Below, piece by piece: positions 4,733-20,000 of a stretch of DNA of 20,000 nucleotides; position 1 is the first letter of the stretch, and each line of letters begins with the position of its first letter. Both the position numbers and the translations under genes were made by a program. The notes below the pieces were generated by a model that made no database searches, was not told where the DNA came from, and saw nothing but the letters and a program-made list of their open reading frames with translations. The stretch is taken from the IMG/VR virus record IMGVR_UViG_3300036945_000909; one strand, written 5' to 3'. Source of the DNA: an uncultured virus (IMG/VR IMGVR_UViG_3300036945_000909) (lineage: Duplodnaviria; Heunggongvirae; Uroviricota; Caudoviricetes).

Positions 4733-4746
4733 AAAAGGATTAATTT

Positions 4747-5130
4747 ATGAGAGACATTAAATCAACCATTTTACTATTAGTCATTATTGGGTTAGCCGGA
4801 TATAATATCTTTTTCACTAAGCAGTTGAGAACGGATATTGATGGTTATAATTCGAAGATTGATAGTATTCAAACCGAAGTTGACTCGGTAGTGTTAGTCA
4901 ACAAAGAATTGGATAGACATATCAATAAACTACATCAAGAAGTTGTAGTAATTGATAAGAATATCGCAGTAGTAACCAAAAAAATAACAACAATAAAGGA
5001 AGAAACAAATGAGAAAGTTAATAACGTTGACAATTATGCTATCCATGACCTTTACCAGTTTTTCTCAAACCGTTACGAAAACGGACTCGATAGTTCCGCT
5101 AAAAGTTCCGGTGGCAAAGCTAGTAATTAA
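4747..5130 (+). CDS. N-terminally membrane-anchored coiled-coil protein (i-spanin-like)
   Basis: N-terminal hydrophobic helix (ILLLVIIGLAGYNIFF) followed by heptad-like sequence; AGGA at 4736-4739; overlaps the next ORF in another frame. Confidence 0.6.
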   Translation: MRDIKSTILLLVIIGLAGYNIFFTKQLRTDIDGYNSKIDSIQTEVDSVVLVNKELDRHINKLHQEVVVIDKNIAVVTKKITTIKEETNEKVNNVDNYAIHDLYQFFSNRYENGLDSSAKSSGGKASN

Positions 5131-5419
5131 GGATATACTTAGAGGTGATGGAGCAATCCAACAATTAGAAGAAACTGAAAAGGTACTTGAATTAACCAAT
5201 CAAAAATTGGTGTTAAAAGAAAATGTAATTTCAGTTCTAAACTCTAAAGTGACAAATTTAGATTATATCATCAAACAAAAAGATGAACAATTTAAATTAG
5301 AACGAAACAAATCTGAAGATTTAATAAAAGAAATAAAGCAAGTTAGACGAACTACTTTTTTATATAAAGTTGGAACGTTTATCGGTGTTATAACTACTAC
5401 TTTATTTTTATTAAAATAA
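5009..5419 (+). CDS. Signal-peptide coiled-coil protein with C-terminal hydrophobic anchor; overlapping partner of 4747-5130
   Basis: MRKLITLTIMLSMTFTSFS/Q signal peptide, coiled coil, C-terminal FLYKVGTFIGVITTTLFLLK; AGGA at 4997-5000. Confidence 0.6.
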   Translation: MRKLITLTIMLSMTFTSFSQTVTKTDSIVPLKVPVAKLVIKDILRGDGAIQQLEETEKVLELTNQKLVLKENVISVLNSKVTNLDYIIKQKDEQFKLERNKSEDLIKEIKQVRRTTFLYKVGTFIGVITTTLFLLK

Positions 5420-5424
5420 ACTAA

Positions 5425-7005
5425 ATGGCATCTTTAAAAGATATAATTAAATTAGAGTATTCTAAATGTGCTGCTGACCCAATATACTTTATGAAAAAGT
5501 ATTGTATGATTCAGCACCCAGTTAGAGGAAAAATTCCATTTCATTTATTTCCTTTTCAGGATAGAACTTTAGTAGAATTCAAAGACCATCGATATAACAT
5601 CGTATTAAAATCCCGTCAAACAGGTATTTCTACTTTGGTTGCGGGATTTTCCCTTTGGAAGATGTTATTTAATCAAGATTACAACGTATTGGTAATTGCA
5701 ACGAAACAAGAAGTTGCAAAAAACTTAATTACCAAAATCAGAGTAATGAATCAATACCTACCAAGTTGGTTGAAACAAGATACGGTAGAAGATAATAAAC
5801 TTTCCCTTCGATATGCAAATGGTTCTCAAGCAAAGGCAACTTCATCTTCTGGAGATGCTGGTCGTTCTGAAGCCCTATCCTTATTAGTATTTGATGAGGC
5901 AGCCTTCATCGATAATATTGAAGAAATTTGGATTTCTGCACAATCTACTCTATCAACGGGTGGTAGTGCGATTATTCTATCTACTCCTAATGGTGTGGGT
6001 AATTTCTTTCATAGAACGTGGGTAGGTGCAGAAGAAGGAACAAACGATTTTAATACCGTTCGATTACACTGGTCAGTTCACCCAGAAAGAGATCAAAGTT
6101 GGAGAGATGAGCAAGCTAGATTATTAGGACCAAAGGGTGCCGCACAAGAATGTGATTGTGACTTTGTAAGTTCCGGTGATACGGTTATCGATCCGGAGTT
6201 ACTTATGTTTTATAAGGAAACTTATGTTCAAGAACCAATTGAGAAGACTGGGTGGGATTCTAACCTATGGAAATGGGAATATCCAAACTACAACAAAGGA
6301 TATATGGTTGTAGCGGACGTTGCTCGTGGAGATGGTGGTGACTACTCTGCATGTCATGTGTTTGATATTGAAACTGCAACACAAGTAGCAGAATATAAAG
6401 GAAAAATGGATACTAAAGATTTTGGTAATTTCTTAGTAGCACTTGCAACTGAATATAATGAGGCACTTTTAGTAATAGAGAATGCTAATATTGGTTGGGC
6501 AGTAATTCAACAAGTAATTGATAGAGGATACCGCAATCTTTTTTATATGAGTAAGGATTTAAAGTATGTAGATGTTCAACATCAATTACATAATAAATTC
6601 AGAGCAGAAGAAAGAGGTATGGTGGCAGGATTTTCTACTACATCTAAAACTCGTCCTTTGATTATTTCTAAATTAGAAGACTACGTCAGAGAAAAATCCG
6701 TAACAATTCGTTCATCGAGATTGATAGAGGAACTATTTACATTTATATGGGTTGGTAATCGTGCAGAGGCAATGAGAGGTTATAATGATGACTTGGTGAT
6801 GTCTTTGGGTATTGGATTATGGGTTAGAGATACTGCACTTCGTTTAAGACAAGAAGGTGTTGATTTAACTAAAATGGCAATCGGTGGAATCCAACAACAT
6901 TCATTCACATTAGATGGTTTCGGTGGCAATTCATCATTAGATGAAAATCCTTGGCAAATGAGAGTGGGTGATAGAAACGAAGATTTGACTTGGTTGATTA
7001 AATAG
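5425..7005 (+). CDS. terL: Terminase large subunit (T4 gp17-like)
   Basis: LFPFQ Q-motif; Walker A LKSRQTGIST; Walker B LLVFDEAAF; coupling motif STPNG; RNase H-like nuclease motifs VVADVARG, VIENAN and NDDLVM. Confidence 0.95.
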   Translation: MASLKDIIKLEYSKCAADPIYFMKKYCMIQHPVRGKIPFHLFPFQDRTLVEFKDHRYNIVLKSRQTGISTLVAGFSLWKMLFNQDYNVLVIATKQEVAKNLITKIRVMNQYLPSWLKQDTVEDNKLSLRYANGSQAKATSSSGDAGRSEALSLLVFDEAAFIDNIEEIWISAQSTLSTGGSAIILSTPNGVGNFFHRTWVGAEEGTNDFNTVRLHWSVHPERDQSWRDEQARLLGPKGAAQECDCDFVSSGDTVIDPELLMFYKETYVQEPIEKTGWDSNLWKWEYPNYNKGYMVVADVARGDGGDYSACHVFDIETATQVAEYKGKMDTKDFGNFLVALATEYNEALLVIENANIGWAVIQQVIDRGYRNLFYMSKDLKYVDVQHQLHNKFRAEERGMVAGFSTTSKTRPLIISKLEDYVREKSVTIRSSRLIEELFTFIWVGNRAEAMRGYNDDLVMSLGIGLWVRDTALRLRQEGVDLTKMAIGGIQQHSFTLDGFGGNSSLDENPWQMRVGDRNEDLTWLIK

Positions 7006-7022
7006 GTAATAAATTAGTTTTA

Positions 7023-7031
7023 TATATTTAT
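7023..7031 (+). promoter_or_regulatory. TATATTTAT putative late-promoter motif
   Basis: Same 9-mer in four intergenic regions upstream of + strand genes. Confidence 0.5.
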
Positions 7032-7049
7032 AGTGTATAGGAGAAAATT

Positions 7050-7526
7050 ATGATAAAATTACAAACACTATTGAACGAAGAATCACCGTGTTGGAAAGGA
7101 TACAAACAAGTTGGCATGAAAATGCTAAATGGAAAGGAAGTTCCAAATTGTGTCCCATCAAAAAACGAATCAATCGATGATGAATACGATGAGTATGATG
7201 TAGAAGATGAGGATGAAGAAGATTTCTTAGATTTTTTAAAAAACTATACAACAGAACTAAAAGAATCTACTTGTAATTGTGTTAATGAAGCAGAATATCA
7301 AGGTAGAGAAGTAAAATTGGGTAAACCAATGCAAGGTGATGTTAAAAAATTTAAAGTATATGTAAAAAATCCTGCAGGAAATGTAGTTAAAGTGAATTTC
7401 GGACAAAAAGGAATGAAAATCAGAAAATCAAATCCTGCTGCTAGAAAATCATTTAGAGCAAGAATGAATTGTGATAATCCTGGACCAAGACATAAAGCAA
7501 ATTATTGGTCTTGTAGAAAATGGTAA
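7050..7526 (+). CDS. Small putative head-associated protein: CWKGY..VPNC module plus basic C-terminal domain
   Basis: 158 aa; AGGAG at 7039-7043; MIKLQTLLNEE leader; PCWKGYKQVGMK..GKEVPNCV; acidic linker; KKFKVYVKN..KVNFG..ARKSFRARMNC..YWSCRKW. Confidence 0.75.
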   Translation: MIKLQTLLNEESPCWKGYKQVGMKMLNGKEVPNCVPSKNESIDDEYDEYDVEDEDEEDFLDFLKNYTTELKESTCNCVNEAEYQGREVKLGKPMQGDVKKFKVYVKNPAGNVVKVNFGQKGMKIRKSNPAARKSFRARMNCDNPGPRHKANYWSCRKW

Positions 7527-7561
7527 AAAAAATAAAAGGTTATAAATTAAAATAAAAAAAT

Positions 7562-9295
7562 ATGGCGGATACTTCGTTTTTTGGCAGATTAAGTAAACTC
7601 TTTCAATCTAAGGCAGTTGTGACTGTTGATAAAGATGGTAAGAGAACGGTCTTTGATGCCGATGAAAGACAACAGACCAATCTATCATCGTTAAGAGATA
7701 GATACACTAAAATTCAAAAATCTTTCTTTGAACAAGCAGGTGGTGCACAATCAATGGCATACCAACAAGTTCGCAGGGAAGTATTTAGAGATTATGATGC
7801 AATGGATTGTGACCCAATTCTAGCATCTGCTTTAGATATATACGCAGATGAATCTACACTTAAAAACGAATTTGGTGATATTTTAACCATTCGTTCTGAT
7901 AATCAAAAAGTACAAGAAGTATTAGACAACCTTTTCTACGATATTCTTAACGTAGAGTTTAACTTATGGCCATGGGTTCGTAATATGGTTAAGTATGGTG
8001 ATTTTTTCTTAGGATTAGAAATTGCCGAAGGTAAAGGTATTGTAAACGTAACCCCTCATTCAGTATATAACACAGAAAGATTAGAAGGACAAGACCCCCA
8101 TAATCCAAATGTAGTTAAATTTAAAATTACTGAAGACCCAAATGGTAAAGTTGAGTATGATAATTTCGAAATAGCACATTTCCGTTTATTAGCAGATACA
8201 AACTGGTTACCATATGGTAAATCAATGATTGAGAATGGTAGAAGATTGTGGAAACAATTGAGTTTAATGGAAGATGCGATGTTAATCCATCGTATTATGA
8301 GAGCACCTGAAAAAAGAGTGTTTAAAATCGATATAGGAAACATTCCACCAACTGAAGTAGATAATTACATGCAAAGAATTATCAACAAAATGAAGAAAGT
8401 TCCTTTCGTTGATAAAAATAGTGGCGATTATAACTTAAAGTATAATATGCAAAACCTTACCGAAGATTTCTTCTTACCGGTTAGAGGTGGTGATAGTGGA
8501 ACTTCAATTGAAAACCTTGCAGGATTAGATTATGCTGCAATCGATGATATTGAATACTTAAAATCTAAATTATTTGCAGCACTTAAAATTCCAAAAGCAT
8601 ATTTGGGATATGATGAGAATGTAAATGGTAAAGCAACTCTTGCAGCCGAAGATGTTCGTTTCGCAAGAACAATTGAAAGAATCCAAAGAACGGTAGTTTC
8701 TGAATTATCTAAAATAGCAATCGTGCATTTATACGCACAAGGTATTACAGATTCTGAAATGACTAACTTTGAATTGCAATTAGTTAATCCTTCAACAATT
8801 TATGAACAAGAGAAAGTAAATCTTTGGTCAGAAAAAGTTAGATTAGCACAAGATATGCAAGGATTGAATATGTTAAGTAAAGATTGGATTTATGAAAACA
8901 TCTTTAAAATGGCCGAAGGTGATCAAACTCGTGAAAGAGGTAAAATCATCGAAGATATTAAAGATAGATTCCGTTATAATTCTATTGAGAATCAGGGCAA
9001 TGACCCAGCAGTGGAATCCGAACCAACTGATGTTGAGGAAAGTTTAGAACAAATCAAAACCGAACTTACAAATAAAGGTGGAAGACCACGTGAAGGAAAT
9101 ACCTATGGTAAAGATAAATCTCCGTTTGGTAGAGACCCATTAGGTGATAAAGAAAATAAAAATGCATTAAAACACAGAACATCTGAAGACCGTGCATTAC
9201 AATATATCAATGGGATTGCAGCAAAACGTAAATTTTTAGCAGAACAAAAAGGTATGTTAGATGAGACTAATATCATCGATGACACGCAAAATTAA
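7562..9295 (+). CDS. Portal protein (T4 gp20-like)
   Basis: LMEDAMLIHRIMRAPEKRVFKIDIGN, EDFFLPVRGG..GTSIENL, YLKSKLFAALKIP and EDVRFARTIERIQ match T4-type portal motifs; lies downstream of the terminase. Confidence 0.95.
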   Translation: MADTSFFGRLSKLFQSKAVVTVDKDGKRTVFDADERQQTNLSSLRDRYTKIQKSFFEQAGGAQSMAYQQVRREVFRDYDAMDCDPILASALDIYADESTLKNEFGDILTIRSDNQKVQEVLDNLFYDILNVEFNLWPWVRNMVKYGDFFLGLEIAEGKGIVNVTPHSVYNTERLEGQDPHNPNVVKFKITEDPNGKVEYDNFEIAHFRLLADTNWLPYGKSMIENGRRLWKQLSLMEDAMLIHRIMRAPEKRVFKIDIGNIPPTEVDNYMQRIINKMKKVPFVDKNSGDYNLKYNMQNLTEDFFLPVRGGDSGTSIENLAGLDYAAIDDIEYLKSKLFAALKIPKAYLGYDENVNGKATLAAEDVRFARTIERIQRTVVSELSKIAIVHLYAQGITDSEMTNFELQLVNPSTIYEQEKVNLWSEKVRLAQDMQGLNMLSKDWIYENIFKMAEGDQTRERGKIIEDIKDRFRYNSIENQGNDPAVESEPTDVEESLEQIKTELTNKGGRPREGNTYGKDKSPFGRDPLGDKENKNALKHRTSEDRALQYINGIAAKRKFLAEQKGMLDETNIIDDTQN

Positions 9296-9312
9296 TCAAT
9301 CATAAAAAATTT

Positions 9313-9321
9313 TATATTTAT
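9313..9321 (+). promoter_or_regulatory. TATATTTAT putative late-promoter motif
   Basis: Intergenic, between the portal gene and the 9363 gene. Confidence 0.5.
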
Positions 9322-9362
9322 AATAGAGTTTTTGAGTATATCAAAATAAGGATTTGAGTAAA

Positions 9363-10232
9363 ATGAAAAAAATAAAACATTCAAAATTTAAGAATACGGG
9401 TTTTCTATTCGAACTATTAACTCGTCAAATAACTTTGGAAATTTTAAATAATTCCCCGGAGAAGGCAAAAAACATCGTATCTGAATTTTTTGGCAATGGA
9501 ACAGAATTGGCTAAAGAACTTCGTTTATTTAATTTATTAATAAATGAAAAATATAATTCTGAAACTAAAGCAGAAAAATTTATTGATGCTATCTTAGATG
9601 CTAGAACAAAGTTAGATGAGCAAAAATTGGCTAAACAAAAATATAGTTTAGTTAAATCGATAAAAGAAAATTTTGAAATAGATTCATTCTTATCATCACC
9701 AGTAACGAATTACAAAGTTCTTGCATCAATTCATAAATTATTTGAGGCAAAAGCAACAAATGTATTGGATGTAAAAGATGTATTCGATTCTAAACTTACA
9801 TTAGTAGAACACGTATCTACATCAACTCCATCTTTGAAACAAAAAGAAGATAAATTAGTTGAAGATTATAAGAAACAAGAAAAAGATTTAAGATTACTTA
9901 CTTATAAGATTCTGGTTGAAACCTTTAATAAAAAATATTCAAATCTAAATGATTCTCAAAAATTATTATTAAGAGAATACATTAATAACGTAACCAATAC
10001 TTCTAAATTTGGTGAATATTATTCCAACGAATTAAAAAATGTTGTAACTGAATTACATTCCATTTATACAACAATGGATGATAAGATTACAAAGATAAAA
10101 TTAAAAGAAACTATTAACGTCTTAAAGAATCAAAAGTTTGGTAAAAAAATTACCGATGAACAAGTTTCTGCGTTAATGATGGGATTTGAACTTATAAAGG
10201 AAATAAAAAATGTTAAAAGCCGAATCTCTTAA
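9363..10232 (+). CDS. Hypothetical helical protein in the head gene cluster
   Basis: Long ORF (KKIKHSKFKNTGFLFELL...). ATG 9363 is preferred over TTG 9354 because AGGA at 9349-9352 is suitably spaced for it. Confidence 0.75.
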   Translation: MKKIKHSKFKNTGFLFELLTRQITLEILNNSPEKAKNIVSEFFGNGTELAKELRLFNLLINEKYNSETKAEKFIDAILDARTKLDEQKLAKQKYSLVKSIKENFEIDSFLSSPVTNYKVLASIHKLFEAKATNVLDVKDVFDSKLTLVEHVSTSTPSLKQKEDKLVEDYKKQEKDLRLLTYKILVETFNKKYSNLNDSQKLLLREYINNVTNTSKFGEYYSNELKNVVTELHSIYTTMDDKITKIKLKETINVLKNQKFGKKITDEQVSALMMGFELIKEIKNVKSRIS

Positions 10233-11493
10233 AAAATATATTGATGAAGTAATTGCAGAAATCGAACAAGAATTAGATGAAGCAACTGCTACCGGTGATA
10301 TTGCAGGATACGAAACTCCAAATGCGTTTTCTGATGGAAGTGATGCAACAAAAAGACGTAAAAAGAAAATTGCAACTCAATTGGGTATGCAGTTAGTTGG
10401 TAAAGTTGAATCAGTAAATGAAGCATCTACAACATTTGTATCTGGTAATTCTGGTAGAACTATAACTCATTTAGATAATAAAAAATATCAATTAACGAAA
10501 GATGTAAAGGGTGCTCAAATTGGAAACTATCATAGTGTAGTTTTACCAAAAGGAAGCATTATACATAATCTACCAGGTGGTGTATTTGTTTCACACCCAT
10601 CGTTAAAAGATAAATTTTCGGGTATTAAAGAAACTCCAAACTTTGGTTTTAGAGTGACTACTCACCCTGATACTATATTAACTATTGAAAAATCTTCAAA
10701 AATATTAGAATCGATAAGTGAAATGGTGATTACCGAAAAACAATTCAAAGGTTTGGATGGGATTCCAGCAACTACTTCATTAGCAAAAATAACCAAAGAC
10801 CAAAAATTAAAAATAATCAAAGGTGTTGGTAATATAATTGATTTTATTGTTCCCAAAGGAGTAAGTAGAAACTTTTGGCAAGTAATTGGAACTGGCAAAG
10901 TAAAGAAAAACTTATCCGGTGAATATTACTTAGAAGGTAAAATAATCAATTCACCTATGTTCAAATCTATGGATGATTTAATAAATGGTATAAAATGGGA
11001 TTCGATGGAAGATAGAAGACGATTTAACGAATCAATTAATGAATATAACTTAAACGATATTATCAAACAGGTTAAAACTTATGAAAAACCAAAAGATGCA
11101 AAACTTTTGACAATCAAAGTAATAAATAAACTTAAAGATACTAGAAATAAATCAAATTCATCTAAAAAAATCGAAATTCAAAAAATAATTGATACTATTG
11201 AGGGTGATTACAACAAAGGTAAGTATCTTAAATTGGAATCAATTAATGAAAATCGTTGGTTAGAATTAAAAAATGATGATTCTATGCATGCTAATAAAAA
11301 ACTAGCAGTTGGTTTAAAAGAATTAAAAAATCAATTAAGTGAAGTTGAAAAGTTTTTCCGTTGGTATAATCAAATCAAAACAATGAATGAATTAGATTCA
11401 AATCAATATTGGAAAAGAACAAATTCACATATTTATAAGATAAAAGAACGTATAATCAACATAGCAAGAACATTGCAGGAGATAGAAAAATAA
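10210..11493 (+). CDS. Putative internal head polyprotein with cassettes bounded by ES[IV][NS]E linkers
   Basis: 427 aa; AGGA at 10198-10201; four ESVNE/ESISE/ESINE/ESINE linkers; overlaps the upstream gene by 23 bp. Confidence 0.7.
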   Translation: MLKAESLKKYIDEVIAEIEQELDEATATGDIAGYETPNAFSDGSDATKRRKKKIATQLGMQLVGKVESVNEASTTFVSGNSGRTITHLDNKKYQLTKDVKGAQIGNYHSVVLPKGSIIHNLPGGVFVSHPSLKDKFSGIKETPNFGFRVTTHPDTILTIEKSSKILESISEMVITEKQFKGLDGIPATTSLAKITKDQKLKIIKGVGNIIDFIVPKGVSRNFWQVIGTGKVKKNLSGEYYLEGKIINSPMFKSMDDLINGIKWDSMEDRRRFNESINEYNLNDIIKQVKTYEKPKDAKLLTIKVINKLKDTRNKSNSSKKIEIQKIIDTIEGDYNKGKYLKLESINENRWLELKNDDSMHANKKLAVGLKELKNQLSEVEKFFRWYNQIKTMNELDSNQYWKRTNSHIYKIKERIINIARTLQEIEK

Positions 11494-11966
11494 TGAAAAT
11501 CACAAAAGAACAATTTAAGAAAATCGTTAGAGAGGTTTTAACCGAAGAAAACGAATACCAAGCATTCTTTCAGAAAGCATTAGATAAAGCTGGAAAATCA
11601 ATTCCATCTATGTCTGATGAAGAAAAGAAAGCGTTTTTTGATAAAATCGATGCCGCATGGAATGGTAAAGGTGAGAAAAACGAAGAATTAGTTGGTGGCC
11701 AAAAAGAATTAGATGTTGATGGTGATGGTGATATTAGTGGTGACGATTTAGCAGATTTAAGAGCTGGTAAAAAAGCAGATGAATCTATAAATGAAGAAGA
11801 TATTAATTGGGGTGCAACCGAAAACGCAATCATTAACTTTCTAAAAGCAAATACAAAAATTTTAGATAAAAGAGTTAAAGATAGAGATACTGATGGTGTT
11901 AAAAAAGGATTACAATCAATTATTGATGGTTTAACTAATGCACAACGCAGTTTAAAATTAAAATAA
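11493..11966 (+). CDS. Putative head protein with EF-hand-like DxDxDG loop
   Basis: TAATG stop/start coupling; AGGAG at 11477-11481; DVDGDGDISGDD at 11712-11747; ESINE linker. Confidence 0.7.
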   Translation: MKITKEQFKKIVREVLTEENEYQAFFQKALDKAGKSIPSMSDEEKKAFFDKIDAAWNGKGEKNEELVGGQKELDVDGDGDISGDDLADLRAGKKADESINEEDINWGATENAIINFLKANTKILDKRVKDRDTDGVKKGLQSIIDGLTNAQRSLKLK

Positions 11967-11981
11967 TTATAAAGGATAGAT

Positions 11982-12575
11982 ATGAAATCATTATTAATAG
12001 AAACTAACCTATTTGAAGGTAAGGTAAATGAGGATGAAGGTGGAAGAACTCTTGTAAAGGGTATTCTACAACGTGCTGGTGCCGAAAATCAAAATGGTAG
12101 AGTATATCCGATGGAAATTTTAAGAAGAGAAGCACAGAAATATGAAACTCTTATTAAAGAAAGAAGAGCGTTAGGAGAATTAGACCATCCAGATTCATCT
12201 GTAATCAATTTAAAGAACGTTTCTCATAACATTAAGGAAATCCATTGGGAAGGTAATGATTTGTGTGGGACAGTTGAAATCTTACCAACTCCATCAGGCA
12301 ATATCTTAAAAGAATTATTAAGAGCAGGAATCCTTTTAGGAATTTCATCTCGTGGTATGGGTTCAGTATCACCAATGGGTGAGGGTAAAGTAAAAGTAGG
12401 TGAAGATTTTGAATTAATTGGTTGGGATTTCGTATCCAATCCATCTACACATGGTGCATTTATGACACCATTACAAGAATCTGTAAATAAACAATTACAA
12501 GAACAGGCAGTAGTATGTGGTGATTTCTGTAAGGCACAAGACCTTATGAGAGAAATTATTACTGAATTAGCATAA
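11982..12575 (+). CDS. Prohead core protease (T4 gp21-like)
   Basis: NQNGRVYP, ALGELDHP (His), LGISSRGMGS (Ser) and WDFVSNPST (Asp) motifs. Confidence 0.95.
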   Translation: MKSLLIETNLFEGKVNEDEGGRTLVKGILQRAGAENQNGRVYPMEILRREAQKYETLIKERRALGELDHPDSSVINLKNVSHNIKEIHWEGNDLCGTVEILPTPSGNILKELLRAGILLGISSRGMGSVSPMGEGKVKVGEDFELIGWDFVSNPSTHGAFMTPLQESVNKQLQEQAVVCGDFCKAQDLMREIITELA

Positions 12576-12586
12576 GGAATACACAT

Positions 12587-13027
12587 ATGGCATTCTCAAT
12601 ACAAGATTATTTAGAACATAATAAAATAGAATTAGGTAAAATCACCAAAGAAGTTGGTGATACTCCATATAAAGGTGGTCATAACGATATTCGTAAAACA
12701 AATTACGATGTTAAGATTAAAGAAGATGGTAAGTTGGATTTATATACTCATAAAAAAGTATTAACTGAATCTATATTAAACGAAGCATCTGAAGTATCAT
12801 TTAATGAATTAAAACCAGAACAACAAAAACAAATTAAAGCGTTCGAACAATTATTGGGTGGAAAAGTTAATTCTATATTTGATGGAATTCACGGATTTAT
12901 CGTAGATTTGAAGGTAAGTGGTGGACATGGTAATTATAGATTTGAAGCCGATGAAATGAAAAAGTTAATATCACTTAAAGTTCGTTGGGTTGAAGGTGAT
13001 AGAGATAATGTAAGTATTGGATTTTAA
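12587..13027 (+). CDS. Hypothetical protein: two modules joined by an LTESILNE linker
   Basis: 146-aa ORF; AGGA at 12575-12578. Confidence 0.7.
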   Translation: MAFSIQDYLEHNKIELGKITKEVGDTPYKGGHNDIRKTNYDVKIKEDGKLDLYTHKKVLTESILNEASEVSFNELKPEQQKQIKAFEQLLGGKVNSIFDGIHGFIVDLKVSGGHGNYRFEADEMKKLISLKVRWVEGDRDNVSIGF

Positions 13028-13044
13028 AAATAGGATTAATAAAA

Positions 13045-15288
13045 ATGATTAAATTAAGAAATTTACTTAACGAAGAAACTTTTACCGCAACAAATAAAAA
13101 GAGTGGTAAAACCTCAGTATTCAAATCAAAAGATAGTAGAGATGCTGCAATCAAAGCAGGAACTCATAATCCTATAAAAGATAAGGGAGATTCTAATTCT
13201 AAAGATAGTGAAACTCCAAAGGTAAATATCTTTGATAAACCATCAAATAAACCAAAATCAAAACCTAAAAAATCTAATAAATCAATTTCCCAAAGTGATA
13301 TAGATGATAATTTAGGAGATTCAGTAGAGTTTGATGATTATTTAGATAATAACGAAGATATATTTTCTAAAGATGATTTTAATGAATTAAAGTCATTAAA
13401 TAGTAATTGGCAACAATTGGAAGCAGATTCAGTCGAAGCAGAAATGGATGATGACTATGAGTTAATGGATGAAATAGATACTGACATAAATAATATAGTT
13501 GGTGATATAACAAATGTATTAGACAAATATTTAGATAAATCTAAAAAAACTCCAATATCAAAACCTAAAAATAAAAGAGGAGAGGGTGACCCCAAAGTAA
13601 ATGCTTTAGCTAATAAATTGGCTGAAAAAGCAGGATTTACTCTGAAAAAATTAGGTAAGGAAAAGTTTAGAGAAGTAATGCTTCAATCAGCAGTTAAGGC
13701 ATTAAAATTTAAATATCGTAGAGAAGCAAGAGAATTGGTAGCAGCACTTGAAGGGAAACCTGAATTTGCAAAAAGAGTAGATTACCCATATGGATTAGAC
13801 CCTAAGTATGATGAGAAAATGGACTATATAAAAAATAATACAGCAGATGGTTCAATTTATATGAACCCATCTGATGATGTTGATAGTTATAGTTTTAATG
13901 TTTTACAATCCTCTAAATATTTTGCTCCAGATGCAGTAGATGCAATTGCGAATACATTAAGAATAAATGGGTTTGATGCTGATGCAGATTTAGTCCAATC
14001 GGTTCTTAATCCTAACAATAAAGAAAAGAAAAACGAAAATAAAATTCAATCTACAAAATTAAAAAGTATAACAGAATCAATGAAATTAAGAAATTTACTT
14101 AACGAAGAAACTTTTACCGCAACAAATAAAAAGAGTGGTAAAACCTCAGTATTCAAATCAAAAGATAGTAGAGATGCTGCAATCAAAGCAGGAACTCACT
14201 CTGAAAAAGAAGATAATAAATCAGATAAATCAACTGGTACTGCTTCAAAAGTAAATATCTTTGATAAACCAACAACATCAGAACCAAAATCAAATACTCC
14301 AAAATTAAGTCCTAAAATGATTAAAATGGATTTGGATGATATGAAGGGAACATTATCAATGTCTGTTGCGTACGCAATTAAAAGAGGTGATAGAAACCCA
14401 AATGTTGCATTCGGTTTAGGTGATAATCAATATGATAATATATTAAAGAGATTAGCAAAAATTGGTGGTGCAAGTGAGCATGATATGAAATTTAGAACTG
14501 ATAATTATTCTACTGCTGAATTAGAAAAATGGGCAAAGGAACGATTAGATTTAGTTTTAACAGATGAACCTAAAGATGAACCAAGCGAACCTAAATCAAG
14601 AAAAGGTGTTCCTGCAGTAAATAAGGCAGTTAGACAACAAGCTCAAAAATTAGGAATTACTCCTGAGAAATTGGGTAAAGAAGAATATTTGAAAAAAATG
14701 GCTCAAGCAGCAGTTTCTGCACTTACTGATTCAAACTTTCACCCTGAAGCAAGACAATTGGTTGCTGATTTAGAAGGAAAACCAGAAATGGCAGAGAAAC
14801 CTGAGTATCCATCAATGAAAGACCCAAAATATAAAGAAAAGATGACAGTTCTTAATGCCAAATACGATTCTGTATATAATACACCTGATAAAGATGCAGA
14901 TGAATTGGGAACTTCAGCATCACAATCTGCTGAATGGAGTGGTGATACTGCAATCGATGCAATCGCGTTTGATTTGAGAATGAATGGTTTTCACAAAATG
15001 GCAGATAAGATACAATCGGTAATTAAAGAAGGTAAAGTTAGTAGAACTTCACTTACAAGAATAATGAACGAATCTGCAAGTAAAGAAGCAGTTGGTATAT
15101 CAGTATTTACTGGTACTCGTGCTGATGCAATTGATGCATTTATTCAAAAACATGAATTAGATGCAATGAAACTTTATAAAAGTATCAAATCAGCAAACTT
15201 AAAAGGTAGAATGGATTTCGTTACTGCATTAGTTGGTAAAGAAGGAAACAAATACCAACAAGCTATTATTAAAGCGTTTAGAAAATAG
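13045..15288 (+). CDS. Internally duplicated putative internal head protein
   Basis: 747 aa; two ~344-aa units, each starting KLRNLLNEETFTATNKKSGKTSVFKSKDSRDAAIKAGTH and containing an LGKE..EARxLVAxLEGKPE domain; AGGA at 13032-13035. Confidence 0.8.
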   Translation: MIKLRNLLNEETFTATNKKSGKTSVFKSKDSRDAAIKAGTHNPIKDKGDSNSKDSETPKVNIFDKPSNKPKSKPKKSNKSISQSDIDDNLGDSVEFDDYLDNNEDIFSKDDFNELKSLNSNWQQLEADSVEAEMDDDYELMDEIDTDINNIVGDITNVLDKYLDKSKKTPISKPKNKRGEGDPKVNALANKLAEKAGFTLKKLGKEKFREVMLQSAVKALKFKYRREARELVAALEGKPEFAKRVDYPYGLDPKYDEKMDYIKNNTADGSIYMNPSDDVDSYSFNVLQSSKYFAPDAVDAIANTLRINGFDADADLVQSVLNPNNKEKKNENKIQSTKLKSITESMKLRNLLNEETFTATNKKSGKTSVFKSKDSRDAAIKAGTHSEKEDNKSDKSTGTASKVNIFDKPTTSEPKSNTPKLSPKMIKMDLDDMKGTLSMSVAYAIKRGDRNPNVAFGLGDNQYDNILKRLAKIGGASEHDMKFRTDNYSTAELEKWAKERLDLVLTDEPKDEPSEPKSRKGVPAVNKAVRQQAQKLGITPEKLGKEEYLKKMAQAAVSALTDSNFHPEARQLVADLEGKPEMAEKPEYPSMKDPKYKEKMTVLNAKYDSVYNTPDKDADELGTSASQSAEWSGDTAIDAIAFDLRMNGFHKMADKIQSVIKEGKVSRTSLTRIMNESASKEAVGISVFTGTRADAIDAFIQKHELDAMKLYKSIKSANLKGRMDFVTALVGKEGNKYQQAIIKAFRK
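13051..13166 (+). repeat. 116-bp perfect direct repeat, copy 1
   Basis: Identical by inspection to 14083-14198 (AAATTAAGAAATTTACTT...GCAGGAACTCA). Confidence 0.95.
14083..14198 (+). repeat. 116-bp perfect direct repeat, copy 2
   Basis: Identical to 13051-13166; offset 1032 bp, in frame. Confidence 0.95.
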
Positions 15289-15296
15289 GAGAATCG

Positions 15297-15761
15297 ATGA
15301 TTAAATTATCACAAATATTAAAAGAAGGTGAAGAAAGACAACAAACTCAGATGTCATCTGAATTAAAGAAACATTTTTTAGAAATCGTATCTACATACAA
15401 CAAGTATCAAGAACAGATGGATAGGAAATCTGATTTAGCAACTATTGCTGAAACTTTAGGTGGAATTACCGAAGCAGCAAGAGCACTTGCTTTGAATGAA
15501 GGTGATGATTGGTTTGATAAAGTAACCATCAAACGTAATATGAATGAGTTAGAAAAATTGGGTAAAGAATTTGATAAATGTGCAATGGAAGCAAATTCAT
15601 TAGACCAAAGAATGGGTGGGTTATATGAAGATATGGGACACATTCTTTCTCGTTATTACAAGTTAGGTGAAATATCCGAAGAACAAATGAAAAATAGATT
15701 AGGTATTACAAATGAATCAGTAAAAACATCTAAAGGATGTGATATTTGTGATAAAAAATAA
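15297..15761 (+). CDS. Hypothetical helical protein with MIKLxxILKE leader
   Basis: 154 aa; AGGAG at 15287-15291; DWFDKVTIKRN..YEDMGHILSRYY. Confidence 0.75.
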   Translation: MIKLSQILKEGEERQQTQMSSELKKHFLEIVSTYNKYQEQMDRKSDLATIAETLGGITEAARALALNEGDDWFDKVTIKRNMNELEKLGKEFDKCAMEANSLDQRMGGLYEDMGHILSRYYKLGEISEEQMKNRLGITNESVKTSKGCDICDKK

Positions 15762-15767
15762 TTTATA

Positions 15768-15776
15768 TATATTTAT
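15768..15776 (+). promoter_or_regulatory. TATATTTAT putative late-promoter motif upstream of bS21
   Basis: Intergenic, about 30 nt upstream of the bS21 ATG. Confidence 0.5.
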
Positions 15777-15807
15777 ACAAAAGTTACAAACAATTTAAAT
15801 TAAATTA

Positions 15808-16071
15808 ATGAGCGGAATATCAAGATGCACAGTAGAAGTTCGTAATGGAGACATTACAAAGGCTTTGAAAATCTTTAAAAAGAAAGTTATGGAAAGTGGT
15901 CATCTCTTAGAATTAAGAGAACGTAAAGAATACGTTAAACCAACCACTAAACGAAGATTGGTCAAGCAAAAGGCAGTTAGAGAAGAACAAAAGAGAGTTA
16001 TTCTTGAGAAAATAGCCGATGGTGACCGAAAATTACGTTTTTATACAAAAAAACGTAAGAAAAAAGAATAA
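15808..16071 (+). CDS. rpsU: Phage-encoded 30S ribosomal protein bS21
   Basis: VEVRNGDITKALKIFKKKV..G.L.ELRERKEYVKPTTKRR..K..AVR matches the bS21 pattern; small and highly basic. Confidence 0.88.
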   Translation: MSGISRCTVEVRNGDITKALKIFKKKVMESGHLLELRERKEYVKPTTKRRLVKQKAVREEQKRVILEKIADGDRKLRFYTKKRKKKE

Positions 16072-16116
16072 AAAATGTAAAATTTATAGAAAAATATAGT
16101 TTTTTTATAAATTGTA

Positions 16117-16125
16117 TATATTTAT
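16117..16125 (+). promoter_or_regulatory. TATATTTAT putative late-promoter motif upstream of scaffold-capsid genes
   Basis: Intergenic; precedes a ~150-nt structured leader. Confidence 0.5.
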
Positions 16126-16133
16126 TATCAATT

Positions 16134-16245
16134 AACTCACTCTCAATGTGAGTTTTTATATTAAGTTGGTTAATGAATACCCTTCTATATAAGGTGTGAC
16201 CGAACAACCGACCTAACTTTAATCTATATTGGAATTCTCCTAATA
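16134..16245 (+). ncRNA. Candidate structured cis-regulatory leader of the scaffold/capsid mRNA
   Basis: Stems AACTCAC/GTGAGTT, GTTGGTT/AACCGAC enclosing CCTT/AAGG, and TATTGGA/TCCTAATA. Confidence 0.4.
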
Positions 16246-16276
16246 ATTTCACAGAACAACACAAGGAAGGTAAAAA

Positions 16277-17335
16277 ATGGCAAATTCAAAATTGTTAAAA
16301 GAAGCAATTGCTGATGCTAAGGCCGTTAGAGAAACTGCAATCGCTAATGCAAAAATCGCATTAGAAGAAGCATTCACTCCAAGATTACAATCTATCTTAT
16401 CTAAAAAACTTCAATCAGAGATGGAAGGTGAAGAAGAAGAAGCAGATGTAAACGAAGAGTATGGTGCTGAAGACACATCAGATGCTGATTCATCAGCAAT
16501 CGGTGATGGCGAAAACAAACAACCTGCAGCTGACGCTAATGACTCATCAGACATTGCACAAGGAAATCCTGATACTGACGTTGAAACTGCTCAAACAGGC
16601 GAAGAAGATGAAAACATCGAAGTAGTTGCTGAAGCAGAAGAAGACGAAATACCAGGTGAAACTCAATCTCGTATCGAAGAAGAAGACGAAGACGAATTGG
16701 ATTTAGAATCAATCATCAGAGAATTGGAAGACGAATTAGGTGGTGAAGAACCATCTGAAGAAGAACCATCTGAAGAAGAACCAGTTTACGAAGAAGAAGC
16801 TGAAGAAGAAGAAGCATCTGAAGAACCAGCAGTTGAAGAAGCTGAAGGTGAAGATGAAGAAATTGATTTAGATGAAATTTTACGTGAAATGGGATACGGA
16901 GATGATGAAGAAGCAGTTGAAGAAGGTGAAGATGAAGATGCAGCAGAAGCTATGGCAGCTAAAGATGCAGAATTAGAAGAAGCTTACAACGTAATCAAAT
17001 CTCTAAAATCAACAATCAACGAAGTTAATTTGTTAAATGCAAAATTATTGTACACAAACAAATTATTCCGTTCTTACGATTTAACTAATGAGCAAAAACA
17101 TAAAGTTGTTGAAACTTTAGATAGAACTCAAAACGTTAGAGAAGTAAAATTAGTGTTCTCTACTTTGGCAGAATCAATGAAAATTGGTGGAACTGCTAAA
17201 AAAGTAAAAGCACAAACAAAATTAACTGAATCATTTGCTTCTAAGCAAGTTGCTTCAACTGCACCGAAAAAAGAAATCATCGCAGAAAGTAACGGATTAG
17301 CAGATAGATTCAAGCAATTAGCAAATATCAAATAA
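16277..17335 (+). CDS. Prohead scaffold/core protein (functional analogue of T4 gp22)
   Basis: Very acidic low-complexity centre, coiled-coil ends, many [LIV]xE sites, immediately upstream of the major capsid gene; AAGGAAGGT at 16263-16271. Confidence 0.8.
   Translation: MANSKLLKEAIADAKAVRETAIANAKIALEEAFTPRLQSILSKKLQSEMEGEEEEADVNEEYGAEDTSDADSSAIGDGENKQPAADANDSSDIAQGNPDTDVETAQTGEEDENIEVVAEAEEDEIPGETQSRIEEEDEDELDLESIIRELEDELGGEEPSEEEPSEEEPVYEEEAEEEEASEEPAVEEAEGEDEEIDLDEILREMGYGDDEEAVEEGEDEDAAEAMAAKDAELEEAYNVIKSLKSTINEVNLLNAKLLYTNKLFRSYDLTNEQKHKVVETLDRTQNVREVKLVFSTLAESMKIGGTAKKVKAQTKLTESFASKQVASTAPKKEIIAESNGLADRFKQLANIK
16745..16783 (+). repeat. 15-bp tandem repeat (GAAGAACCATCTGAA, ~2.6 copies) encoding EEPSE
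   Basis: Read directly from the sequence within the scaffold gene. Confidence 0.85.
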
Positions 17336-17361
17336 CAAAACAAACATTAGGAGAAAATAAA

Positions 17362-18990
17362 ATGGCAAATTTCGATTTATCAAAACTAATGGAAGGAAAG
17401 AACCCACAACAAGTAATGTTGGCTGAAACACGTCAATTACAATCTAAGTGGGAAAAAACTGGACTTCTTGAAGGTTTAAAAAGCAGAGAGCAATCTCAAA
17501 TTGCAGTTCTTTTAGAGAACCAAGCAAAACAATTATTAGATGAAGCAACAGCAACAGGTACTTCTGCAGGTTCAGAAGAGTGGTCTGGAGTAGCATTACC
17601 ATTGGTAAGAAGAATCTTTGGTGAAATCGCAGCGAAAGAATTCGTTTCGGTTCAACCAATGAACTTACCTTCAGGTCTAATCTTCTTCTTAGATTTCAAA
17701 TACGGAACTGCACAACCAGGTAATCCTGCATTCGCTGGAAAATCTTTGTTCGGTGGTAATGGAACATCTGCAGCTAATTCTGACTTCGGTAGAACTAAAG
17801 CAGCAGTAAACGGTCTTTATGGTGAAGGACGTTATGGATATTCAGTAAATGATTCATCAGTAGCAGTAGCTTCAGGTAACCAATCATTTACAACAGCATC
17901 TTGGTCTGATGTAGGATTTGATTCAGCATTATCTGCATCAATCGCAGCATCTCAAATCGCTAAAATATCTGTATCAAAAGCAAACGTATCTGCAGTTTCT
18001 GACGTAGATGCAGTTCGTTCATTCTATGTATCATCTTCAGTATTCGCAGCAGCAGATTCATTCTACCCTGCATACTCACACTTTGATGGTACAAATTATT
18101 CATTCTTTGCTAAAGTAGCTAACATTTCATCTGGTTCAGGTGCAACTACTTTAACAGTTAAATATTCTGAGCAACCTGCTGCTTACGACAGAGGTGATTT
18201 CGAAGATGGAAATCCAACAGAACCGGCTACTGATTTAGGTATTCCAGAAGTTGATTTAGAATTGAAATCAGAGGCTATCGTTGCTAAGACTCGTAAGTTA
18301 AAAGCAGTGTGGACTCCAGAGTTGGCACAAGACTTAAATGCTTACCACTCAATTGATGCTGAAGCAGAATTAACATCTATGTTGTCTGAATATATCTCAT
18401 TAGAGATTGACTTAGAAATCTTAGATATGTTAAAAGCTAACGCTTTAACAACTGAGTATTGGTCAGTAACTTTAGGTGAAGAGTATAACTCAGCAACAGG
18501 TGCATGGTTAGCAGGAACAAACTCTGCAGCATACACTAAAAACACATGGTTCCAGACTTTAGGTGCTAAAATAAACAAAGTATCTAATAAGATTCACCAA
18601 TTAACATTACGTGGTGGTGCTAACTTCATCGTAGCTTCTCCAGACGTATGTACGGTATTAGAATCTATTCCTGGATTCGTAGTAAACGCAGATAAAGATG
18701 CAATGTCATTCGCAGCTGGTGTAACAGCAGTTGGTTCTATGGCAAATCGTTATACGGTTTACAAAAACCCTTATATGACATCTAACGAAATCTTATTAGG
18801 TTTCAAAGGTTCAAACTTCTTGGAGACTGGAGCAGTTTACGCACCATACGTTCCATTGATTATGACACCATTAGTGTACGATCCAACTAACTTCACGCCA
18901 AGACGTGGTGTTATGACTCGTTACGCTAAGAAGATGGTAAGACCAGAATTCTACGGAAAAATTTATGTTAAAGATTTAGCTAATATCTAA
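17362..18990 (+). CDS. Major capsid protein (T4 gp23-like)
   Basis: KWEKTGLLEG, LLENQ, PLVRR, VQPMNLPSGLIFFLD, AKTRKLKAVWTPELAQDLNAYH, YAPYVPL and FTPRRGVMTRY motifs; AGGAG at 17349-17353. Confidence 0.97.
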   Translation: MANFDLSKLMEGKNPQQVMLAETRQLQSKWEKTGLLEGLKSREQSQIAVLLENQAKQLLDEATATGTSAGSEEWSGVALPLVRRIFGEIAAKEFVSVQPMNLPSGLIFFLDFKYGTAQPGNPAFAGKSLFGGNGTSAANSDFGRTKAAVNGLYGEGRYGYSVNDSSVAVASGNQSFTTASWSDVGFDSALSASIAASQIAKISVSKANVSAVSDVDAVRSFYVSSSVFAAADSFYPAYSHFDGTNYSFFAKVANISSGSGATTLTVKYSEQPAAYDRGDFEDGNPTEPATDLGIPEVDLELKSEAIVAKTRKLKAVWTPELAQDLNAYHSIDAEAELTSMLSEYISLEIDLEILDMLKANALTTEYWSVTLGEEYNSATGAWLAGTNSAAYTKNTWFQTLGAKINKVSNKIHQLTLRGGANFIVASPDVCTVLESIPGFVVNADKDAMSFAAGVTAVGSMANRYTVYKNPYMTSNEILLGFKGSNFLETGAVYAPYVPLIMTPLVYDPTNFTPRRGVMTRYAKKMVRPEFYGKIYVKDLANI

Positions 18991-19024
18991 TCTTAACAGA
19001 ATTGACGTAACGATTCAATAATAG

Positions 19025-19054
19025 AAAGAGGGAAACGAAAGTTTCCCTTTTTTT
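19025..19054 (+). terminator. Rho-independent terminator after the major capsid gene
   Basis: Stem AGGGAAAC (19029-19036), GAAA loop, GTTTCCCT (19041-19048), followed by a T-run to 19054. Confidence 0.9.
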
Positions 19055-19092
19055 ATGTCCTAGTATATATTATGGAAACCTTGTGGTTAAAC

Positions 19093-19142
19093 ATTCAGTG
19101 TCTTATATGACATTTGAGTTGGAGAAATACCAACAAATGAAT
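19093..19142 (+). ncRNA. Candidate three-way-junction RNA leader
   Basis: P1 ATTCA/TGAAT, P2 GTGTC/GACAT, P3 GTTGG/CCAAC. Confidence 0.4.
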
Positions 19143-19171
19143 TTTTAAATACAAACAAAAATAAGGAAATT

Positions 19172-19969
19172 ATGAAACAATCAGTTTGGACAAGTGGAAG
19201 TCCGTCAAATCCACAAGCGTTTATCACCAAAGGTAAACAAAGAATCAAACAATTCGAAGGACAAGTCTATCTTAATGATGGAGATGAATATCAAATCGAA
19301 TTATTCAACCCAACTCCAAATCACGTCTTAGCAAAAATCAAAATCGATAAGGATTATTTATCAGGTGGTGGTATTGTATTACGACCAGGTGAGAGAGTGT
19401 TTTTAGAACGTTTCTTGGATTCAAATAATAAATTTGTATTCAGAACCTATGAAGTAGGTAAAGAGGCAGTTAATGTAGGTGCTATTGATAATAATGGATA
19501 TGTAGAAATACAATTCTTTGCTGAATATACATCTTCTAACTTTTTAAATAGTGGGTTTACTACAATTAGCACCAATAATAGTGGAAATTGGGGTGGTAAT
19601 ACATTTACTACTAATACATTGGGAATTAGTGGAGTTACGAATACTGCATATTATAGTAATACGGGAACTTTAACATCAGGTATTAGTTCAATCGTATCAT
19701 CCAACACATTAGCAGGACCAAATATTCGAAGTACGAATAAAGTTGAAACCGGTACAACTGAAAAAGGAGATACATCTAATCAACAATTTACATCATCAAA
19801 TAGAAGTTTTAATTCATATTCATTTCATAATGTAGCATGGAGAATTTTACCCACATCACAAAAGCAATACCACAAAGAAGATTTAGGTGTATTGTATTGT
19901 GGTGAGTGTGGTGCAAAAAGAAAAAAAGATACACATAAGTTCTGTCCACATTGCGGAACTAAATTTTAA
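19172..19969 (+). CDS. Hypothetical protein: beta-rich N-terminal domain, S/T/N/G-rich linker, C-terminal zinc ribbon
   Basis: 265 aa; YCGECG..FCPHCG; AGGA at 19164-19167. Confidence 0.75.
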   Translation: MKQSVWTSGSPSNPQAFITKGKQRIKQFEGQVYLNDGDEYQIELFNPTPNHVLAKIKIDKDYLSGGGIVLRPGERVFLERFLDSNNKFVFRTYEVGKEAVNVGAIDNNGYVEIQFFAEYTSSNFLNSGFTTISTNNSGNWGGNTFTTNTLGISGVTNTAYYSNTGTLTSGISSIVSSNTLAGPNIRSTNKVETGTTEKGDTSNQQFTSSNRSFNSYSFHNVAWRILPTSQKQYHKEDLGVLYCGECGAKRKKDTHKFCPHCGTKF

Positions 19970-20000
19970 TTAACAAAATCACAAGGTATTCACTAAGGAG

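Follow-up and report, generated by a model that had tools for sequence, protein, structure and literature searches.

Previous studies on Flavobacterium johnsoniae describe ribosomes whose anti-Shine-Dalgarno (anti-SD) sequence is sequestered with the participation of the ribosomal protein bS21, and an autoregulated bS21 gene, rpsU; ribosomes that do not hold the 3′ tail of the 16S rRNA use mRNA led by a Shine-Dalgarno (SD) site (PMC7797042, PMC9976891, PMC13000457, PMC13000453). In this bS21, Tyr54 stacks on A1534 at the turn of the 3′ tail towards the bS18/bS6 pocket (PMC7797042), and the Y54A replacement or deletion of residues 43-64 raises the output of strong-SD reporters approximately 1.7- to 5-fold, both in vivo and in vitro (PMC9976891). 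The protein is sterically excluded by a 13-bp SD helix (PMC13000457), and ribosomes without it occur naturally and translate the SD-led rpsU mRNA (PMC9976891). Here we analyse a 20,000-nucleotide stretch of DNA from the uncultured virus IMGVR_UViG_3300036945_000909, referred to throughout as the window, in which a phage gene for bS21 lies within a head module whose genes are mostly preceded by SD sites.

bS21 is the ribosomal protein most often encoded by phages, although its function in infection is unknown (PMC9976891). Chen et al. (2022, ISME Commun 2:31; PMC9723584) found it in freshwater myoviruses with assigned Bacteroidetes hosts, where its gene lies in the head module and is expressed late and at a high level, and proposed that it substitutes for its counterpart in the ribosome; the portions of their text available to us treat SD sites as background and contain no SD-site analysis of phage genes. 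Virus-encoded bS21 is also known from the Pelagibacter phage HTVC008M and other marine phages (Mizuno et al. 2019, PMC6375957), which differ from the present case in the phylum of their hosts and, in the available part of that report, in that no link to SD usage is drawn. The HTVC008M protein can enter Escherichia coli ribosomes (cited in PMC9976891), and McNutt et al. (2023) speculate that a counter-defence could involve the exchange of bS21 and the autoregulation of rpsU. Published proposals extend to the suggestion that phage bS21 may favour phage transcripts, and our literature search found no paper in which phage bS21 is connected with SD-led phage genes or with anti-SD release. Phages of Cellulophaga baltica are described in a preprint as lacking the SD feature (10.1101/2021.04.21.440840), so SD-led virion genes in a Bacteroidota phage would be unusual.

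The window resembles the phages of Chen et al. (PMC9723584) in its freshwater origin and in having bS21 inside a T4-like head module, together with the large terminase (TerL), portal, protease and major capsid protein (MCP). It departs from them, as far as the available text describes them, in that their bS21 gene lies on the reverse strand whereas here it shares the strand of its neighbours, as also in 21/21 other head-module loci and in Microcystis phage Mel-JY01, and in that the Tyr or other aromatic residue at position 54, from which host-like blocking of the anti-SD was inferred, is replaced by an invariant Arg. The switch described for F. johnsoniae is the loss or mutation of the host's own bS21 and concerns one gene with a 13-bp SD helix, whereas here a foreign bS21 would serve at least a dozen virion genes with SD sites of 4-5 nt. 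Flavobacterium phage vB_FspM_immuto (MW353176.1), which is cultured and complete, shares the head-module gene order, an MCP at 51% identity and a TATTTATA-type motif, but no PF01165 match is found in its 160 kb and an SD site precedes only 1/46 annotated genes in the region examined. To the bS21 of the marine phages the present protein is related only distantly, with tblastn hits of 36-38% identity to the Mosig and Melnitz phages.

Shine-Dalgarno sites and the phage bS21

The window comprises bases 40701-60700 of a 60,724-bp linear IMG/VR virus contig (CheckV completeness 29%); its GC content is 31% and all of its genes are on the + strand. Its predicted gene content, which includes a gp20 portal, gp21 protease, gp23 capsid protein and T4-type large terminase recognised with Pfam (Table 1), is that of the T4-like head-morphogenesis module of an uncultured freshwater myovirus.

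We scored as an SD site any AGGA, GGAG or GAGG ending 3-12 nt before a start codon. Such sites precede 13/17 window genes, with spacers of 4-11 nt, compared with a frequency of 0.043 at the other ATGs of the contig (binomial p 3e-15), and a chance origin is excluded. Over the 46 true starts of the contig the motif ends at spacers of 4-12 nt, with one stray at 18 and none at 0-3 or 13-17. The sites are concentrated in the head module, being far less frequent in the rest of the contig (5/29; Fisher p 1e-4) and absent from the enzyme-annotated genes (0/11; Fisher p 7e-5); 4/5 of the SD-led genes outside the head module have TATTTATA in front. The consensus, [A/T]A[A/G]GGA[G], is complementary to the flavobacterial 16S rRNA end CCUCCUUU (flavobacterial 16S ends read CCTCCTTTCT), so that in 16S complementarity, in placement and in enrichment at true starts these motifs behave as SD sites. 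For the gene listed with a TTG start at 9354, ATG 9363 suits the motif better, with a 10-nt spacer.

A preliminary description of the window had placed AGGA(G) motifs 4-11 nt before the ATG of 13/17 genes, and all 13 coordinates are correct. The further AGGAG that it noted at the window end (19996) is likewise a leader, as the contig continues to an ATG. It had called bS21, terminase, portal and gene 4073 SD-less, and the A/T-rich leaders of TerL (5425), portal (7562), bS21 (15808) and gene 4073 indeed contain no AGGA, GGAG or GAGG. Its suggestion that early genes be compared with late ones is borne out in the contig by the contrast between virion and enzyme genes. We consider it very likely that the SD-like sites are true translation signals and that the phage reserves them for its virion genes.

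The bS21 gene encodes an 87-residue protein recognised by its Pfam profile (Table 1), and bS21 chains in the PDB match it with E-values down to 6.6e-6, scoring alike for F. johnsoniae (23.8 bits) and E. coli (29.8 bits). A word-based search gave 144 relatives at E ≤ 0.001, of which the 120 listed are all metagenomic and 72-141 residues long. In an alignment of the query with 23 of those listed, Arg58 is invariant (24/24). Joint alignment with cellular bS21 from five Bacteroidota genomes found with a 16S probe (Flavobacterium, Polaribacter, Sphingobacterium, a Bacteroidaceae member and a Crocinitomicaceae member) places Arg58 at Bacteroidota Tyr54, which is present in 5/5, with no gap after a conserved KP motif. 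From this motif onwards the phage protein has 44 residues and a net charge of +13; for the four cellular bS21 in which the motif was located, the values are 24-26 residues and a charge of +2 to +5. Bacteroidia-type bS21 has a C-terminal part that is short and weakly basic (PMC7797042); the phage protein is neither, and it lacks the signature Tyr54. Because it lacks Tyr54 and has a basic, E. coli-like tail, and because changes at Tyr54 or the C-terminus raise SD output in F. johnsoniae, it is a reasonable candidate for an SD-permissive part.

A search with the motifs of this bS21 family in 185,579 prokaryote species genomes gave 73 pattern matches, none of which was confirmed, and by these searches the family is large and phage-only. 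With no cellular relatives among these species, bS21 gives no host signal. The family's motifs also have no text match in the supplements of Chen et al. (2022), in which figures supplied as images are unreadable to such a search. An AlphaFold model (predicted local distance difference test score, pLDDT, 76) has a single predicted helix, residues 48-71, running across Arg58, and a disordered tail; a fold search with this model gave no match at E ≤ 0.001, which is uninformative for so extended a protein.

The phage bS21 gene also differs from its cellular counterparts in its leader: in 3/5 of the sampled Bacteroidota, rpsU of the host is led by a strong SD (for example GAGGAGGTG), and the phage gene has none. 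It is preceded instead by one of the TATTTATA elements, of which 11 copies occur in the 120 nt upstream of contig genes compared with 1.35 in shuffled sequences, and which are enriched in all four large relatives examined. The T4 late promoter is TATAAATA, and by analogy we regard TATTTATA as late-promoter-like. With this element in front and an A/T-rich SD-less leader, bS21 looks like a late unit of its own, so that the protein would be made late. A terminator-like hairpin follows the gene, although one such hairpin is close to the 0.8 expected.

RNA-library contigs from four freshwater runs (three studies) match the module at 95-99% identity, and one of 2,507 nt spans 15148-17655, taking in gene 15297, bS21, the scaffold gene and the start of the MCP gene. 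Word depth in these libraries is far higher over 15.3-19.3 kb than over 4-13 kb; as depth cannot rank genes and the libraries may hold DNA, this is a weak hint that the 15.3-19.3 kb block is transcribed, and an equally weak hint of agreement with the late, high expression that the available text of Chen et al. (2022; PMC9723584) gives for bS21 phages.

Relatives and host

A scan of IMG/VR gave at least 605 relatives, from which 79 loci were kept; these include near-duplicates (L168/169/170, L151/152 and L138/204). Orthologous starts were mapped by tblastn, and we kept only those cases in which the match started no later than residue 8, a start codon was present within six codons and at least 25 nt of upstream sequence were available. 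The SD core is conserved before the scaffold gene in 22/23 relatives, before the MCP gene in 23/46 and before the protease gene in 9/24, compared with 3/21 for portal and 1/14 for terL. The MCP site is kept in all five members of the contig's immediate clade. The earlier observation that the low-copy terminase and portal are SD-less thus extends to 13/14 and 18/21 relatives respectively, and the pattern fits one in which high-copy head proteins are SD-led and low-copy ones are not. Leaders of the bS21 gene are SD-less in 16/18 relatives with a usable start; in the other two, L201 and L173, the bS21 gene is itself SD-led (TAGGAGGT and AGAGGT), as in host rpsU.

Concentration of SD sites in the head module is also seen in four larger relatives that carry bS21. 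One of these, G006 (which contains locus L145), is a 252,603-bp IMG/VR record rated 100% complete whose MCP is 73% identical to that of the contig. It is SD-poor overall (27/259 genes), with 5/10 in the head bin; 26/27 of its SD-led genes were searched against PHROGs, and of the seven given a function five are virion genes, namely portal, protease, MCP, adaptor and sheath. The other three (G014-G016) show the same peak, as in G014, where SD sites precede 14/19 genes in the 10-30 kb bins and 10/63 beyond 50 kb, and in G016, with 24/28 against 7/26.

A profile search of six-frame open reading frames (ORFs) found bS21 in the head module of 20/79 loci and of LR756508, always on the MCP strand. We scored the share of SD-led genes with a simple ORF caller in 52 loci of at least 8 kb, leaving out 30 shorter ones; the shares range from 0 to 0.83. 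Both traits are known for 36 loci, with G006's locus counted as bS21-positive. The median SD share is 0.45 in the 21 loci with bS21 and 0.12 in the 15 without bS21 in the head module (Mann-Whitney p 3.6e-5), and shares of at least 0.30 occur in 16/21 and 1/15 respectively. The clade around immuto (15 rows), which lacks bS21, has almost no SD sites, from 0/8 to 4/13 per locus.

At the site of Tyr54, the 22 head-module bS21 proteins, the contig's included, have Arg in 15, Tyr in five and Met in LR756508; the residue is unclear in L189. In the five with Tyr, the N-terminus is extended by about 20 residues, and this extension is basic. The bS21 proteins of L150, L139, L138/L204 and L140 begin with MLI or MIN and contain KPSV like cellular Bacteroidota bS21; their tail is nevertheless basic and Arg occupies the Tyr54 site, as if a host gene had been acquired and had later changed at this site.

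The nearest MCPs in the phage collection are those of LR756508 (uncultured, 484 kb; 55% identity), Mel-JY01 (53%), immuto and Rhodothermus phage RM378 (45%). As the contig contains no early region, its host has to be judged from its relatives. The bS21 of G006 belongs to the same family (46% identical, with the SGHLxELRER motif and Arg at the key site). In this genome bipartite TTTG-N17-21-TAnnTTTG elements stand before genes 14 times, compared with 0.41 in shuffles (maximum 4); TAnnTTTG is the flavobacterial sigma-A -7 box (PMC9723704). One element of this promoter consensus occurs in G019, a closer relative with an 80% identical MCP; in five fragmentary relatives counts of the bipartite pattern are no better than in a reversed control. 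We therefore consider it probable that the contig's lineage infects Bacteroidota, which for the contig itself is a deduction from the G006 promoters and from cultured immuto. The Bacteroidota host implied in the preliminary description is to this extent supported, whereas bS21 phylogeny, offered there as a means of confirming it, is of no help. The early promoter of G006 is also strikingly uniform, TTTGG-N19-TTCGTATATTTG, with at least 12 copies (for example at 2937, 9433, 34670, 70346, 187713 and 218085), well beyond what a generic host consensus would need.

A possible role for phage bS21 in SD use

The explanation that we favour for this arrangement runs as follows. The ribosomes of the Bacteroidota host would keep their anti-SD hidden. 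The phage places short [A/T]A[A/G]GGA[G] sites 4-11 nt before the ATG of genes for virion proteins, most of all those of the head module, and leaves its enzyme genes, terminase, portal and bS21 gene itself with host-type, A/T-rich SD-less leaders. The phage bS21 mRNA would be translated late by unmodified ribosomes, and the protein would then replace host bS21 on the 30S subunit and loosen its hold on the 16S rRNA 3′ tail. Once it was incorporated and the anti-SD released, SD-led virion mRNAs would gain in translation, a private advantage late in infection.

That phage bS21 makes the SD sites usable in this way, as the preliminary description proposed, is plausible but unproven, and we place it a little short of an even chance. 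Consistent with it are the SD-less bS21 gene behind a late-promoter-like element and the loss of Tyr54. Slightly more tentative is a stronger version, in which phage bS21 would be the SD-permissive part that turns SD-blind Bacteroidota ribosomes SD-reading late in infection and opens a private channel for SD-led virion mRNAs. We hold with similar reserve that host mRNAs and phage enzyme genes would then stay on the SD-less route, and that the virus would have built itself a specialised ribosome that follows a defined mRNA code. If correct, nature would here offer a clear example of ribosome specialisation through the swap of one protein. An SD site in an SD-ignoring host lineage is a candidate mRNA feature by which virion messages could be told apart, and the absence of Tyr54 together with a basic tail is the candidate protein feature; since F. 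johnsoniae strains, reporters and ribosome structures already exist, the idea is directly testable.

Several results weigh against it. The phage SD sites are short (4-5 nt) in comparison with the tested host case of a 13-bp helix (PMC13000457). In all 61 phage bS21 of Chen et al. (2022; PMC9723584) position 54 is reported to be aromatic, and the authors infer that these proteins act like that of the host. Among our own relatives, L153, L154, L160, L162 and L171 keep Tyr and are nevertheless SD-rich (0.33-0.69), so the Tyr-to-Arg change is not needed for an SD-rich head module; that the change alone is the mechanism is unlikely. Conversely, some phages are SD-poor despite bS21 with Arg (L138 5/26, L204 4/28, L150 3/20, L140 1/12, L139 5/23) or with Met (LR756508, 0/8); L138 and L204 are near-identical, so these six loci represent five distinct phages. 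In a quick IQ-TREE phylogeny of 63 of the 83 capsid proteins bS21 changes state only four times; the independent pairs number two if well-supported branches alone are used and four if all are, and with so few contrasts no independent-pairs test can reach significance. Most loci scored as lacking bS21 are fragments, and since the bS21 gene of G006 is 105 kb from its head module, absence from a fragment proves little. The association between bS21 and SD sites anticipated in the preliminary description is accordingly visible in the medians, but not over many independent lineages. As regards the host, no Bacteroidota-type bipartite promoter was found in the SD-rich relatives G014-G016, nor any promoter of this type in the contig, where the early region is missing; and Mel-JY01, in which 17/31 genes are SD-led and the head module includes bS21, is recorded from the cyanobacterium Microcystis, a host assignment for which we found no paper.

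Much of this evidence could also be read to mean that the SD sites, although real translation signals of high-copy virion genes, work without phage bS21, either on a bS21-lacking fraction of host 30S subunits or through weak pairing. Phage bS21 would then have some other job, such as ribosome capture or upkeep, or countering a translation-stalling defence, and the two traits would simply be co-inherited in a few lineages. The poor match between Tyr54 and SD share in both directions and the small number of contrasts favour such a view, as do five close relatives without head-module bS21 that keep the scaffold SD site (L132, L133, L134, L137 and L149) and the natural bS21-less ribosomes that translate rpsU (PMC9976891). 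Set against it, however, are the near absence of SD sites from the bS21-less immuto clade, the presence of bS21 in all 11 loci that combine an SD share of at least 0.45 with a visible MCP-upstream region, and the example of G006, which has no bS21 in its head module yet has one elsewhere in its genome. We regard both the independent working of the sites and the other job for bS21 as rather unlikely, though less so than Tyr54 replacement as the sole cause.

It is quite improbable that the host is an ordinary SD-using bacterium, with SD sites that are routine and bS21 an incidental auxiliary gene. The match of phage bS21 to the F. johnsoniae protein is no better than that to the E. coli one, Mel-JY01 is both SD-rich and recorded on Microcystis, and the contig shows no Bacteroidota-type promoter; but in such a host most genes would be SD-led, contrary to the counts for enzyme genes, for genes outside the head module and for G006 as a whole. 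The bipartite promoters of G006, with the one in G019, and the culture of immuto on Flavobacterium point the same way. Least probable is that the AGGA(G) motifs are not ribosome-binding sites but part of a late transcription or RNA-processing signal. Four of them do lie at a fixed short distance after TATTTATA (contig 4700, 6656 and 14422, and window gene 7050), but most SD-led genes have no TATTTATA nearby (MCP, scaffold, protease, 10210, 11493, 12587, 13045, 15297 and 19172), the distance to the ATG is held at 4-11 nt even within upstream coding sequence, and the motif is complementary to the 16S rRNA end.

Other features of the module

The features located in the window are collected in Table 1. 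The scaffold role given there would follow from the position and acidity of the product. The 265-residue product encoded after the MCP gene has no relative by tblastn among the 79 MCP loci.

Table 1. Positions, in window numbering, of the genes and sequence elements discussed
Feature	Position	Strand	Remarks
SD-like AGGA	4736-4739	+	7 nt before ATG 4747 (127-residue membrane/coiled-coil protein)
SD-like AGGA	4997-5000	+	8 nt before ATG 5009
Large terminase (TerL)	5425-7005	+	Pfam Terminase_6N 1.2e-10, phrog_2 5.5e-50; A/T leader, SD-less
SD-like AGGAG	7039-7043	+	before gene 7050; TATTTATA at 7025-7032
Portal, gp20-like	7562-9295	+	Pfam Portal_T4 5.8e-69; SD-less leader
SD-like AGGA	9349-9352	+	10 nt before ATG 9363; TATTTATA at 9315-9322
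SD-like AGGA	10198-10201	+	8 nt before ATG 10210, within end of upstream gene
SD-like AGGAG	11477-11481	+	11 nt before ATG 11493
SD-like AGGA	11973-11976	+	before protease gene 11982
Prohead protease, gp21-like	11982-12575	+	Pfam Peptidase_S77 1.3e-26
SD-like AGGA	12575-12578	+	8 nt before ATG 12587
SD-like AGGA	13032-13035	+	9 nt before ATG 13045 (747-residue protein, MIKLRNLLNEE start)
SD-like AGGAG	15287-15291	+	5 nt before ATG 15297
TATTTATA, late-promoter-like element	15770-15777	+	30 nt before bS21 ATG
Ribosomal protein bS21, 87 residues	15808-16071	+	Pfam PF01165 2.2e-14, 53.3 bits (cut-off 27), residues 8-59; SD-less leader
Terminator-like hairpin after bS21	16134-16154	+	weak: 1 found, 0.8 expected
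SD-like AAGGAAGG, AGGA core	from 16264	+	before scaffold-like gene 16277
Acidic scaffold-like protein, 352 residues	16277-17335	+	SD-like leader
SD-like AGGAG	17349-17353	+	before MCP gene 17362
MCP, gp23-like	17362-18990	+	Pfam Gp23 3.4e-77
SD-like AGGA	19164-19167	+	before 265-residue gene 19172
265-residue gene, adjoins MCP gene	19172-19969	+	C-terminal zinc ribbon, Pfam 1.9e-4, below cut-off
SD-like AAGGAG	19995-20000	+	ATG 7 nt on in contig, just outside window

The 40 kb of the contig upstream of the window encode a primase, an SbcCD-like nuclease, an NAD-synthetase-like protein, nucleotide-sugar epimerases and a radical-SAM (S-adenosylmethionine) protein, in addition to a tail-fibre-like giant gene and many unknowns. 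At the window's start, a giant ORF of 1,566 residues (window 3-3995, contig 39995-44695) contains a DUF5661 domain (Pfam 2.9e-13) and is preceded by TATTTATA and GAGG. Genes 4747-5130 and 5009-5419, both SD-led, overlap by 122 nt in different frames. The product of the former (127 residues) has a predicted N-terminal membrane segment and coiled coil, and that of the latter a signal-peptide-like start and a hydrophobic C-terminal end; the arrangement resembles embedded spanin pairs, although a lipobox cysteine is not seen.

Three window proteins begin with near-identical decapeptides: MIKLQTLLNE (7050), MIKLRNLLNE (13045) and MIKLSQILKE (15297). In the 13045 protein the first approximately 40 residues (KLRNLLNEETFTATNKKSGKTSVFKSKDSRDAAIKAGTH) recur near residue 346, and in G006 the genes at 209865 and 210789, directly before bS21, have starts of the same MIKL type. 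The internal head proteins of T4 carry capsid-targeting, protease-cleaved propeptides, and by analogy the MIKL-type start has the look of a propeptide of such proteins, serving in capsid targeting or removed by the protease.

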